Virus record (IMG/VR): IMGVR_UViG_648276671_000019
Location: 1 to 31,646 of that record
Length of the DNA stretch: 31,646 nucleotides
Source: a virus
Taxonomy: Duplodnaviria; Heunggongvirae; Uroviricota; Caudoviricetes
Strand: one strand, 5' to 3'
Shown in pieces: positions 19,232-21,817 of this stretch. Positions within the stretch are counted from its first letter, which is position 1. Every line of letters starts with the position of its first letter. The notes beneath the pieces were generated by a model. It saw only the letters and a program-made list of their open reading frames with translations, was not told the origin of the DNA and searched no databases. The position numbers and the translations under genes were made by a program.

Positions 19232-21817
19232 TTACTGACTCAGACTGTTTACATTTTTCTGGAATTTTCGCTTCGCCTGAATGATGCGCCATGCCTCACT
19301 TCCTTCCGGTGGCTCGTACCGGGCACCACCATCCAGTGGCAGGGAAAGCACTTCGGGTGAGCTTTTCGTTATCTTCTGTGCCCGTTCACGACCTCTGGCA
19401 AACCGGATGAATTTGTGTCTGATGTAGTTACTTACCTCTGGGCTTATTTCCATCGGGAAACTGCTCAACCCATCAGGCCATTCACCGAATTTCTCCCTGA
19501 AAGTGTGAGCACACCATCCATCACTGACTGGACGCCCCAGCGAAGCACGCTGGCGCTGATAAAATTTGATCTGACTCCACCAGGACTGTTTCTCTGCCTT
19601 CGTGGACTGATGCTGATTTTTACCCAGCTTATTAAGTTTGCGGCTAGTGTCAGTATCAACGTCTTCACCTCGCAGCGGCTTGTGTCCACATTTCGGGCAA
19701 ACATAGACGCCAGCTGGCTTCATGTAGTGGCATTGAGGGCATTCATGTGGCAGTTTTTCGGCCCGTTCCTCAACTGCGCGGCGCGCGCTTTCCTCCATGC
19801 CGTCAGACTTACCGGGAAGATCGTCGTACTCGATTGAATCCGGATAACCCAAACGGTGCACGGTGCCGCTGTGATCGAAGATTAAGCAGTTATGGACTAT
19901 AAGCCCATTAGCGGTGAAGCGGCGAAACCGCCCCGCATTGTGAATGTCCCATACTTCCCTTTCGGTTTGCATGAGGGAGTATTCCAGCGATTCACTATGT
20001 CCTGGTCGGACATACCAGAGTGAATCATTCTCTTTAATGTCGCATCGGCGTATTTCACATCCGGGAAATTGCTTCTGAATTGATAAAAGCGTTGCCCGGT
20101 GTTTCTGCTCACTCGCCTGTTGTTTGAATTTATAACCTTCGGCACCCAGCGAAGATTGCCCGGCTCGTAATCCCCGTTGTTGTCGATCCTGTCCAGATCC
20201 ATATCTCGCGAATTTGGTACCCCGATATTGTCCACTATCCATCGTGCGGCATCGTTTGGGCTCCTGAATTTGAACTGAATCCCTCGTCCACCATAATTTT
20301 CGTAGCTTTTTGCTCTGGGATTGTTGCAGCGCTGTTCCTGTGACTGACATCGCCTGTAAATCCAGAGGGGTATTTCCACCGGAATATCCTGATAAGGGTG
20401 ACATTGCGGGCAGGCTTTTGTCTTCGGTCGCTTCCTCATGTTGTGGTACCGGTGAAAAAATACGTTCCCGCATCGCTGGCAACATACCTCCACTTTCAGG
20501 TTCCACGCGCTCCCCTGAGTCTCCCGTGAGATTATTGTCAGCGAACCGAATGTTTTCCCCACAAGCTCCGGCGACAGCAATCCAGAGCCGTCGACTAGCC
20601 GCCTCTTCGAATTTTTTCCACCCTTCATTTGTAAGAACCTCATGATCTGGGGTTGCAATCACCCCGCAATATTCAATGGTTTTTTGTACACCTTTAGAAA
20701 CAGCCCCTTCGTGCTCGACAAAAGAAATACCATCCCAAACCTTATGGCTAAGGCTTATATCCTGAATTTTGACTTCACCTTTATCGGTCAGAATTAAGGT
20801 GTCACGGGCAATACAGGATTCTTTCCCCGGTGCGGTGCGCAGGCCACGACCGAGCGCCTGCAGCCAGCGAATTTCGCTTTTTGTTGGCCTGGCGTAGATG
20901 ATGCAACGAACGTCACTATCGAAGCCTGCCACCAGAACGCCCACACTGACGATGATTTTCGTTGCTCCCGTTTCAAAGCGGTGAATGATGGTCTGACGCT
21001 CATCCACAGGCGTGTCGGCTGTCATAACCTCAGCGTTAACGCCAGCCCGGTTAAACTGAATTGTCAGAAAATTAGCATGAGGCACGTTGACGCAGAACGC
21101 GATGGTAGGTAGATCCCGGCCATTCTCCAGCCAGTTCTGAACGATGTCGCCCACCAGCGTAGAGCCGCACATGATTTCAGCCAGCTGTGTTTCGTTGTAA
21201 TCGCGGCCGTACTCAAGCGAAGATGTGGTTTTAACACCTTTCAGATCCGGCTTAGTTGGCGCGTAAAATTCGTATTTACTCAGATCGCCACGCTGGATTA
21301 ACTCGCCGATGGTGGTCGGCTTAATCAGTCGGTCATAGTATTTGCCCAGGAACGGGGAAAACGGAGTACCCGACAGGCCAATCACCTTTACGCCTTTGCC
21401 GCGCAGACGTTCGATATCCTTCAGGATGCGTTTTTTACGCAGGTGCGCTTCGTCGATAATCAGCAGATCGATATTTTCAGGAAAAACACGACGAATAAGC
21501 GTGTCAGCGCTGGCAATCTGAATTTTCCGGTCCGGATCGTAGTTCGGGTGATCCGCCCAGATATAACCGATTTCATCTCCAGGTAAACCATACTGCACGA
21601 ACCGATTAGCCGTCTGACCAATCAGGATGGTGTACGGAACACAGAACAGAACGCGCATACCACGGCTGACAAAACCAGCAACTATGAAGGCTGCCAGCCC
21701 CGTTTTACCGCTACCTGTTGGCGAGTACACCATGAAGGTGTCGTTTGCCTTCCAGTCACGGCGCAACATGTTTAGCGCTCGCTCCTGTGCAAAATTCGGC
21801 GTGATTGTCAGCTGCAT
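19232..21817 (-). CDS. Superfamily-2 DEAD/DEAH-box helicase interrupted by an intein, with C-terminal zinc ribbon
   Basis: Walker A PTGSGKT, motif II IIDEAH, motif III SGTP, motif VI QALGRGLR; intein begins immediately after motif VI; C-terminal CPQC...CPKC. Confidence 0.85.
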   Translation of the reverse strand: MQLTITPNFAQERALNMLRRDWKANDTFMVYSPTGSGKTGLAAFIVAGFVSRGMRVLFCVPYTILIGQTANRFVQYGLPGDEIGYIWADHPNYDPDRKIQIASADTLIRRVFPENIDLLIIDEAHLRKKRILKDIERLRGKGVKVIGLSGTPFSPFLGKYYDRLIKPTTIGELIQRGDLSKYEFYAPTKPDLKGVKTTSSLEYGRDYNETQLAEIMCGSTLVGDIVQNWLENGRDLPTIAFCVNVPHANFLTIQFNRAGVNAEVMTADTPVDERQTIIHRFETGATKIIVSVGVLVAGFDSDVRCIIYARPTKSEIRWLQALGRGLRTAPGKESCIARDTLILTDKGEVKIQDISLSHKVWDGISFVEHEGAVSKGVQKTIEYCGVIATPDHEVLTNEGWKKFEEAASRRLWIAVAGACGENIRFADNNLTGDSGERVEPESGGMLPAMRERIFSPVPQHEEATEDKSLPAMSPLSGYSGGNTPLDLQAMSVTGTALQQSQSKKLRKLWWTRDSVQIQEPKRCRTMDSGQYRGTKFARYGSGQDRQQRGLRAGQSSLGAEGYKFKQQASEQKHRATLLSIQKQFPGCEIRRCDIKENDSLWYVRPGHSESLEYSLMQTEREVWDIHNAGRFRRFTANGLIVHNCLIFDHSGTVHRLGYPDSIEYDDLPGKSDGMEESARRAVEERAEKLPHECPQCHYMKPAGVYVCPKCGHKPLRGEDVDTDTSRKLNKLGKNQHQSTKAEKQSWWSQIKFYQRQRASLGRPVSDGWCAHTFREKFGEWPDGLSSFPMEISPEVSNYIRHKFIRFARGRERAQKITKSSPEVLSLPLDGGARYEPPEGSEAWRIIQAKRKFQKNVNSLSQ
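19889..20815 (-). other. Intein (309 codons) in the helicase gene
   Basis: N-terminal block CIARDTLILTDKG, block B ATPDHEVLT, C-terminal NGLIVHN followed by extein Cys (CLIFDHSG); boundaries checked codon by codon (TGT at 20815-20813, AAC at 19891-19889, TGC at 19888-19886). Confidence 0.75.
19897..20628 (-). CDS. HNH homing endonuclease encoded out of frame inside the intein
   Basis: Alternate-frame ORF (track 19897..20658) with LVGKTFGSLTII, VCCQRCG, YENYGGRGI and DRIDNNGDYEPGNLRW motifs typical of phage HNH endonucleases; first ATG with a GAGG-type Shine-Dalgarno at 20628. Confidence 0.6.
   Translation of the reverse strand: MKGGKNSKRRLVDGSGLLSPELVGKTFGSLTIISRETQGSAWNLKVEVCCQRCGNVFFHRYHNMRKRPKTKACPQCHPYQDIPVEIPLWIYRRCQSQEQRCNNPRAKSYENYGGRGIQFKFRSPNDAARWIVDNIGVPNSRDMDLDRIDNNGDYEPGNLRWVPKVINSNNRRVSRNTGQRFYQFRSNFPDVKYADATLKRMIHSGMSDQDIVNRWNTPSCKPKGKYGTFTMRGGFAASPLMGL

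Follow-up and report, generated by a model that had tools for sequence, protein, structure and literature searches.

The question raised by the locus described here is how the same 927 bases can encode an intein in one reading frame and a nuclease-like protein in another. The locus is a replication helicase gene in IMG/VR virus record IMGVR_UViG_648276671_000019, of which positions 1 to 31,646 were analyzed (31,646 nt of prophage DNA, referred to as the window; all coordinates are window positions). The insertion in this gene probably is a mini-intein with a separately translated nuclease gene nested in its +1 frame, the two jointly forming a homing element, an assignment that draws on comparative sequence analysis. 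A first-pass annotation of the window had recognized an intein with both frames open and had left two explanations, either a genuine overlapping gene or a once in-frame endonuclease domain displaced by two compensating indels.

An in-frame insertion in a prophage helicase gene

19232–21817, minus strand: precursor of a superfamily 2 (SF2; DEAD/ResIII-type) prophage replication helicase, 861 codons including the intein (open reading frame list; Pfam ResIII, DEAD, and Helicase_C matches)

20816–21817, minus strand: N-extein, helicase residues 1–334, ending ...QALGRGLRTAPGKES (gap-free alignment to the intein-less Escherichia coli M8 allele)

19889–20815, minus strand: putative class-1 intein, 927 nt, 309 codons in the helicase frame, zero stops

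19232–19888, minus strand: C-extein, beginning CLIFDHSG, zinc-ribbon region (weak Pfam DZR match; gap-free against the intein-less E. coli allele)

Deletion of 19889–20815 leaves a gene of 1659 nt, whose alignment to the helicase gene of E. coli M8 is gap-free (73 mismatches, 95.6% identity), and the junction peptide GLRTAPGKES/CLIFDHSGTV is identical in the M8 helicase and the intein-deleted window gene. The empty M8 site reads ...GGTAAAGAGTCC/TGCCTTATCTTC..., and the insertion extends from the TGT at 20815 (CIARDTLILTDKG...) to the AAC at 19889 (...NGLIVHN), after which the extein continues with Cys. The comparison with intein-less helicases showed that the intein coordinates given in the first-pass annotation, 19889–20815, are the exact borders of a 927-nt in-frame insertion. 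The insertion point, which had been placed right after helicase motif VI, indeed lies six residues past this motif (QALGRGLR). An empty helicase allele is present in 99 complete E. coli genomes (at most 95.7% identity, 64% of the query covered, in two pieces). The inserted intein DNA was absent from all 5426 complete E. coli genomes searched, and its sole match in phages was a chance-like stretch of 53 nt in a Ralstonia phage.

The putative splicing domain and its linker

20531–20815, minus strand: N-terminal splicing region, intein residues 1–95, with block A CIARDTLILTDKG and block B ATPDHEVLTNEGW; overlaps the start of the nuclease open reading frame (ORF) from residue 63

19976–20530, minus strand: intein linker, residues 96–280; helicase-frame reading of the nuclease core, open but not conserved as a protein

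19889–19975, minus strand: C-terminal splicing region, blocks F/G: EREVWDIHNAGRFRRFTANGLIVHN; conserved in the host frame and aligning with the C-terminus of the Mtu RecA mini-intein

The residues C1, T55, H58, and N309 are invariant in an intein alignment of 16 homologous loci, the C1 codon of the window being the TGT at 20815–20813. Block B of the window intein reads ATPDHEV and aligns to ATPDHKV of the Mtu RecA mini-intein. The intein ends with ...IVHN/C; its penultimate His is found in at least 90% of the loci (L059 has AN), and the +1 extein residue is Cys, or Ser in L003 and L058. A mini-intein profile, obtained by joining the two conserved intein ends (~121 residues) of 16 homologous loci, matched 17 PDB sequences at E ≤ 0.1, all of which are inteins. 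The best match was the Mtu RecA mini-intein (E = 2.6e-5), followed by DnaE, DnaB, DnaX, and Neq inteins. The intein splicing blocks that had been proposed at both ends of the insertion are thus supported by the conserved C1, T55-x-x-H58, H308-N309, and +1 Cys as well as by profile matches to inteins only, and the insertion can be regarded as a putative class-1 intein with a splicing domain of ~120 residues. The alignment to intein profiles that the first-pass annotation had suggested was successful for the profile of the two ends, but the single window sequence remained under the curated cut-offs.

According to a rival explanation the insert is not spliced and is kept as a tolerated surface loop of the helicase, as has been proposed for the ShiLan domain. 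The out-of-frame HNH insertions of that study (PMC11855218), which are in frame with a methylase, lack splicing motifs, and the scores of the window intein under the thresholds of curated intein models would fit this view as well. Against it stand the conservation of the splicing-critical residues (C1, TxxH, HN, +1 Cys/Ser), the purifying selection on the host frame at both ends, and the match of the two-ends profile to 17 solved structures, all of them inteins. Moreover, a 309-residue loop beside helicase motif VI would hardly be tolerated, and a retained loop is considered very unlikely.

In the structure prediction the N-terminal splicing region is beta-rich with a predicted local distance difference test score (pLDDT) of 54–78, and the linker has a pLDDT of 22–35. 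Searches of profile libraries with the helicase-frame linker gave zero family matches, in agreement with the earlier observation that the helicase-frame interior lacks endonuclease motifs. The ~185-residue linker is predicted to be probably disordered. A functional linker domain in the helicase frame was also considered and rejected based on the missing family match, the low pLDDT, and a ratio of nonsynonymous to synonymous substitution rates (dN/dS) of 1.7–1.9 in homologues. A protein search with the helicase-frame intein returned two matches only (P0121 and P0122); the intein alignment is shallow because gene callers tend to predict the nested ORF and to break up the host gene.

A nuclease-like gene in the +1 frame

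19897–20628, minus strand: nested +1-frame gene, 243 codons plus TAG, with a homologue-supported ATG at 20628

On the same strand, the +1 frame is open from 20658 to 19897 (253 codons) and ends with a TAG at 19899–19897, 8 nt short of the intein end. The nested protein consists, in this order, of a Cys4 zinc ribbon, a W..RC.NP..Y..YGGRGI module, a beta-beta-alpha-like module (D-R..Y.PGNLRW..N..N), and a helical C-terminal domain. It has 1131 relatives at E ≤ 1e-5, the closest of which are ORFs of ~240 amino acids with up to 61% identity (59% for the best match), and matches the PHROG families phrog_374 (“HNH endonuclease”; E = 8.8e-27), phrog_3377 (1.7e-22), and phrog_2081 (1.7e-10). The AlphaFold (AF2) model of the nested protein, based on 27 sequences, has a pLDDT of 84 and is confident for residues 21–230. 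Its 89 matches in BFVD (E ≤ 1e-3) are predicted phage proteins annotated as HNH, AP2/ERF, or HTH homing endonuclease; the PHROG and BFVD labels are annotations in which activity is assigned by family name. The final ~25 codons of the nested ORF overprint intein blocks F/G, and the low-confidence tail of the model (residues 231–253, ~23 residues) coincides with these blocks. The conserved C-terminal tail of the nuclease, KPKGKYGTF, overlies intein block F (EREVWD) and is a passenger of this block, because the conserved frame at the C-terminal end is the host frame.

Distant members of the family are free-standing phage genes annotated as HNH endonuclease. A scan of IMG/VR with the nuclease protein retrieved distant relatives only (29–47% identity), in which the second frame is not open and which were used as free-standing controls. 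In nested as well as free-standing members, the general-base His of HNH nucleases is replaced by an Arg that is invariant (D156-R157), within the family motif L-D-R-I-D-N-x-G-H-Y-E-P-G-N-L-R-W...N..N. No Pfam model of the HNH clan matched the nested protein at E values up to 10, and there was no NCBIfam match. “HNH” thus should be read as a family label derived from annotation and fold resemblance, and catalysis by an HNH-like protein that lacks the His appears to be the weakest link of the account. Of the HNH endonuclease that the first-pass annotation had seen in the second frame, the length of ~243 amino acids and the affiliation to HNH-annotated phage families were confirmed, but the canonical His is absent and a Pfam HNH match was not obtained.

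Recurrence of the nested architecture and openness of both frames

Metagenome contigs, GTDB (one genome per species), and GenBank phages served as sources of loci. The nested architecture was found in 20 further loci (35–60% amino acid identity) from isolates, metagenome-assembled genomes (MAGs), metagenomes, and deposited phage genomes with G + C contents of 0.43–0.65, and the nuclease ORF always is +1 to the host frame. SF2 helicases carry the insert at two sites, which are six codons apart, in assemblies of Caldilinea, Methylobacterium platani, Acidobacteria, Gammaproteobacteria, Pseudomonadales, Pedobacter, and Chlamydiae. In family-A DNA polymerases a single site is occupied; the hosts are assemblies of Megasphaera elsdenii, Faecalibaculum, Clostridiales, and Actinomycetes as well as the Gardnerella phage vB_Gva_AB1 and the Streptococcus phages Javan113, 101, 104, 107, 255, and PhiSdyV1524. 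The GenBank records of these phages annotate the polymerase locus as “DNA polymerase” only. The inteins of the Streptococcus and Gardnerella phage polymerases (L079/L078) have a length of exactly 927 nt (309 codons), which is the length in the window, despite a nested-protein identity of ~35%.

The ~305-codon intein contains no host-frame stop in 19 of the 20 further loci, or in 20 of 21 if the window is included. The exception, the Logan contig L001, has a single TAG at intein codon 14 (2193–2195) that is one substitution away from the GAG of its relatives and is due to a sequencing error or else to recent inactivation of this copy. The third frame contains 24 stops in the window and 4–31 across the loci. 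At the observed offset, a stop in the host frame requires a T-ending nuclease codon followed by a codon that starts with AA, AG, or GA. Since stops arise only in these contexts, both readings can be kept open by synonymous choice alone. In the window, none of the 72 codons in stop-prone contexts ends with T, as compared to 25% elsewhere (~1e-9), and across 16 analyzed loci the count is 0 of 987 versus 11–32% elsewhere in the same ORFs. Ten free-standing homologues, by contrast, have 3–46 stops in the host-equivalent frame and T-ending codons in 192 of 773 such contexts. Permutation of synonymous codons in the nested ORF of the window yielded a mean of 11.6 helicase-frame stops, and zero stops were obtained in 0 of 10,000 permutations. 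The earlier statement that double openness is very unlikely by chance is well founded on these two tests, and as judged from the compared loci both sequencing error and chance can be excluded as its source.

From a lone sequence, the simplest reading would be an artefact or recent damage, in which a once in-frame HNH domain was displaced by two compensating indels (through mutation or sequencing error) and the openness of the host frame is accidental; canonical inteins with an HNH domain in frame are known (cited in bioRxiv 10.1101/2025.01.02.630785). This explanation is contradicted by the same offset and double openness in 20 independent loci from varied sources and phyla, by the low probability of chance openness in the window (P < 1e-4 by permutation, ~1e-9 analytically), and by the conserved ATG that the nuclease ORF has of its own, which in several loci is immediately preceded by +1-frame stops. 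Furthermore, a chimeric in-frame query (N-terminal splicing region, nuclease, and C-terminal splicing region) detected no protein at >81% coverage in a collection of 5.8 billion proteins, a negative result that is limited by the search method and by gene calling, and its best matches cover the nuclease part only. Damage or artefact is therefore extremely improbable, and the paired indels envisaged in the first-pass annotation are refuted by the 20 independent loci that share the +1 offset and by the failure to find an in-frame fusion.

Each frame is conserved in its own part of the insert

Conservation was measured relative to the window sequence. The host frame is conserved for intein residues 1–70 and 281–309 (0.34–0.57; C-terminal region 0.54), and the +1 frame, which reaches only 0.16–0.23 over residues 1–70, has values of 0.23–0.72 over residues 75–280. 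Host-frame identity in the linker is 0.08–0.29, except where nuclease motifs force higher values. The least conserved codon position switches accordingly, being position 3 of the host frame in both splicing regions and position 3 of the nuclease frame in the core; around intein residues 62–95 both frames appear to be constrained. In the core of close Streptococcus phage pairs, which differ at 28–30 positions, dN/dS is 0.11–0.12 in the nuclease frame, 1.7–1.9 in the host frame, and ~1 in the third frame. Together with the 20 further loci at the same offset, this frame-switching conservation and the dN/dS values support the other explanation that had been left for the window, a genuine overlapping gene.

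Probable translation of the nested gene

20638–20641, minus strand: Shine-Dalgarno (SD)-like GAGG, 9 nt upstream of the nuclease ATG, made of the His-Glu-Val codons of intein block B

The starts of the closest relatives align with the ATG at 20628, and in several of these relatives two +1-frame stops directly precede the start codon. In 14 of 16 loci, a [GA]AGG or GGAG tetramer occupies precisely position −13 relative to the putative start, whichever of the two alternative start positions is used; in the Gardnerella phage vB_Gva_AB1 the SD-like motif is GGAGGT. No promoter-like site was detected on the coding strand within the gene. These features suggest internal initiation on the helicase mRNA.

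A programmed +1 frameshift after block B would be an alternative to internal initiation. Ribosomes could shift back before block F, which would result in an intein of the canonical type, or could end at the TAG and thereby produce a fusion of N-extein, N-terminal intein part, and nuclease. Such a shift would be compatible with the location of both ORFs on one mRNA without an internal promoter-like site and with a nuclease ORF that starts in block B and stops 8 nt before the intein end, and the conserved SD-like element could in principle stimulate it. Frameshifting would, however, provide no reason to keep ~185 host-frame codons free of stops, yet their openness is absolute in 20 of 21 loci. 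Initiation accounts better for the two conserved ATG positions, both of which have an SD-like motif at −13, and the +1-frame stops directly upstream of the ATG also contradict a shift, which is regarded as improbable.

Probable mobility and decay of the insert

Several lines of evidence bear on horizontal movement of the insert. Close relatives include both empty and occupied alleles, in E. coli prophages as well as in Streptococcus phages, among which polymerase genes that are 88–90% identical lack exactly the 927 nt. Between Javan113 and PhiSdyV1524, the exteins differ by 7.6% and 19%, whereas the intein differs at only ~4 of 927 nt (~0.4%). In the comparison of the window with E. coli M8, the 300 nt of the N-extein that adjoin the intein (20816–21115) contain 32 mismatches as opposed to 9 in the 600–700 nt further upstream, and five silent changes are located within 30 nt of the junction. 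The mismatch cluster at 20816–21115 resembles a co-conversion tract, or changes that would protect the homing site. Many of the closest homologues are found on contigs of ~1 kb. Four Logan/ENA contigs of this kind (L084–L087; 978–1044 nt) consist of the intein with 27–65 nt of upstream and 37–90 nt of downstream flank, the two shortest stopping 27–39 nt past the intein borders. Contigs of ~1 kb are the pattern expected if a k = 31 assembly graph branches at the borders, with occupied and empty or differently flanked alleles coexisting.

The nested ORF might alternatively encode a DNA-binding protein other than a nuclease (an AP2/HTH-type regulator or a maturase-like helper), or be a decaying relic in a vertically inherited mini-intein with a long linker. 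The family-wide replacement of the HNH His by Arg, the missing Pfam HNH match, the varying annotation of relatives as AP2/ERF or DNA-binding, and the truncation or premature stop in several copies are in line with this alternative. It is opposed by the purifying selection on the ORF (dN/dS 0.11) and its conservation across phyla, and by the spread of free-standing members in phages, which is like that of homing endonuclease genes. In addition, the presence/absence pattern and the much higher similarity of the inteins than of the exteins indicate ongoing horizontal transfer, which requires a DNA-breaking activity from some source. A non-nuclease or relic is thus unlikely.

A probable composite homing element and its possible origin

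The interpretation favored here, a mini-intein and a nested nuclease gene that move together, would make the insert a composite selfish element that obtains two proteins from a single stretch of 927 bases. In the helicase frame, the intein would splice out after translation and restore the helicase. In the +1 frame, the linker DNA and parts of the flanking splicing blocks would encode a 243-amino-acid member of a free-standing-type HNH/AP2 homing-endonuclease family, which would be translated separately from its own ATG within the helicase mRNA by means of the GAGG in block B. The nuclease presumably cuts intein-less alleles near the insertion site, whose repair would copy the whole insert in, and helicase-frame stops would be purged by selection because the host needs the helicase.

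Splicing and nuclease-driven homing appear well supported by the comparative data, but several points weigh against this interpretation. The window intein alone scores under the curated cut-offs (TIGR01445, 19.6 versus 24.5; PF14890, 14.6 versus 35.8), and its structure model, derived from an alignment of three sequences, is poor (pLDDT 41.7) and was left unused for fold searching. Because conserved intein codons dictate the SD-like motif as well, its conservation cannot be counted as separate evidence. Finally, the nuclease ORF is truncated or interrupted in three loci with an intact host frame. L057 (Methylobacterium platani) and L066 have deletions of ~50 codons, resulting in inteins of 258 and 263 amino acids and a nested ORF of ~193 amino acids, and the Streptococcus phage PhiSdyV1524-fexAoptrA (L088) has a Trp-to-stop change in the nested ORF. 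The nuclease therefore seems to be dispensable once the insert is fixed.

As to the origin of the element, it is most likely that a free-standing endonuclease gene invaded a mini-intein and by luck left the host frame unbroken. The free-standing distant family members and the failure of the chimeric query to find an in-frame fusion favor such a capture over a frameshifted canonical intein.

Comparison with known systems

The first-pass annotation was not aware of any described intein with this layout. A recent preprint does describe the same kind of arrangement in actinophages, among them Angelicase, Affeca, Keitabear, and Sedona (Gosselin et al., 2025; bioRxiv 10.1101/2025.01.02.630785). There, inteins of polymerase, capsid, terminase, and thymidylate synthase genes contain an endonuclease VII-like gene “in frame 3,” an arrangement that the authors call previously unreported and attribute to the entry of a free-standing endonuclease gene into an intein. 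In both cases the splicing domain and the extein share one frame, a nuclease ORF on the same strand but in another frame occupies the usual position of the endonuclease, and the in-frame reading of the nuclease region lacks recognizable structure. The nucleases differ, as a zinc-ribbon and D-R-type HNH/AP2-like protein is encoded here, for which the endonuclease VII PHROG match reached only E = 0.027. Going by the description in the preprint, the offset also differs (+1 here, “frame 3” there). Other distinctions are the insertion in SF2 helicase motif VI and family-A polymerase rather than in the four actinophage genes, the hosts, which here belong to the Proteobacteria, Firmicutes, Bacteroidota, Chloroflexota, and others, and the overprinting of splicing blocks by the nuclease ORF at both ends.

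ShiLan, described by the same group (Arsenault et al., 2025; PMC11855218), comprises hidden out-of-frame HNH genes within insertions in phage DNA methylase genes that are open in the host frame. Shared features are the open host frame with an HNH-type second frame, a nuclease stop in the last few bases of the insertion, and an in-frame product predicted to be disordered. ShiLan has no detectable splicing domain and has been proposed to be a retained loop, whereas the class-1 intein blocks are present and under selection in the inserts analyzed here. Furthermore, no ribosome-binding site was found for ShiLan and leaderless initiation at GTG was invoked; here, an ATG is accompanied by an SD-like motif at −13.

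In the fractured genes reported by Dassa et al. (2009; PMC2677866), a free-standing nuclease gene separates the halves of a split intein and overlaps the downstream half by 6–69 bp. A separately translated endonuclease gene between the intein halves of a gene for DNA metabolism, helicases included, is common to both systems, and the 3′ overlap of the nuclease with the C-terminal intein part is ~80 bp here. Fractured genes, however, consist of two host ORFs joined by trans-splicing and have GIY-YIG or Vsr-like nucleases, whereas here the intein is contiguous, and the host frame runs through it without a break in the window as well as in 19 of 20 relatives. In a family-A polymerase locus of a Verrucomicrobiales MAG (JACKPW010000022.1; L067:3500–5000), N-extein plus N-terminal intein part, nuclease, and C-terminal intein part plus C-extein are located in three frames, with stops in the first. 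This locus may be a fractured-gene or split-intein derivative, a frameshifted pseudogene, or an assembly error.

Canonical inteins with LAGLIDADG or HNH nucleases have the same splicing signature, nuclease DNA between blocks B and F, and a polymorphism of empty and occupied sites, but their nuclease is a domain of the intein polypeptide, whereas here it is located outside the intein protein. The helicase genes of L003, L058, and L061 additionally contain, upstream of the nested-nuclease intein and at different sites, an intein of the canonical type whose LAGLIDADG motifs are in frame (in L061, in the Walker A loop: GAGK/CLAKGT...VTHN/T), and the canonical and out-of-frame architectures therefore coexist in one gene.

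The principle of an out-of-frame nuclease gene within an intein has thus been known since 2025. The nuclease family, offset, host genes, taxonomic breadth, and overprinting of both ends appear to be new, and full-text literature searches suggest that the family is undescribed. As a further-reaching and tentative possibility, which is rated at somewhat less than an even chance, the inserts may represent a distinct, old, and widespread lineage of two-protein homing elements. In such a lineage, the nuclease would never be part of the intein polypeptide and the near-complete overlap would be held purely by selection at synonymous sites. The ribosome-binding site and start would be built from block B codons, coupling nuclease expression to the integrity of the splicing domain, and the nuclease would have a His-less HNH-like active site. 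The lineage would then exemplify, in extant elements, the “splicing first, endonuclease captured later” route to the homing endonucleases of inteins.

Genomic surroundings

The surroundings of the helicase gene are those of an E. coli-type siphovirus prophage and are 95% identical to prophages of several E. coli strains. A toprim primase gene is located downstream of the helicase gene, with the synteny seen in E. coli prophages. In E. coli GF60 and three other strains (L091:908–1510), a gene with a NUMOD4 domain is found directly upstream of the intein-less helicase gene, which it overlaps by 10 nt, and probably encodes another free-standing HNH-type nuclease; at the same position the window has a different ORF of 122 codons (21929–22297). 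Two adjacent tRNA genes, tRNA-Gly(TCC) and tRNA-Arg(TCT), are located within the prophage on the minus strand (15158–15310).

Implications

The records of phages such as the Streptococcus Javan phages and Gardnerella vB_Gva_AB1 give “DNA polymerase” for the occupied gene, and metagenome gene callers split the host gene; intein and nuclease are therefore systematically missed. Cultured prophages and phages carry the element and close empty alleles exist, which makes splicing, internal initiation, and homing directly testable. A mini-intein that tolerates an arbitrary linker of 185 residues may also be of interest for protein engineering. As a case of dual coding the element is a clean one, in which the second reading is maintainable by synonymous changes alone, a signature that is matched by the data.

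Capture of free-standing nuclease genes is assumed to be the way in which inteins acquired their homing endonucleases, and to our knowledge the intermediates of this process have so far been almost entirely hypothetical. The nested-nuclease family, which is distributed over several bacterial phyla and occupies three insertion sites in two essential replication genes, looks like such a capture intermediate, and one that is stable rather than transient.

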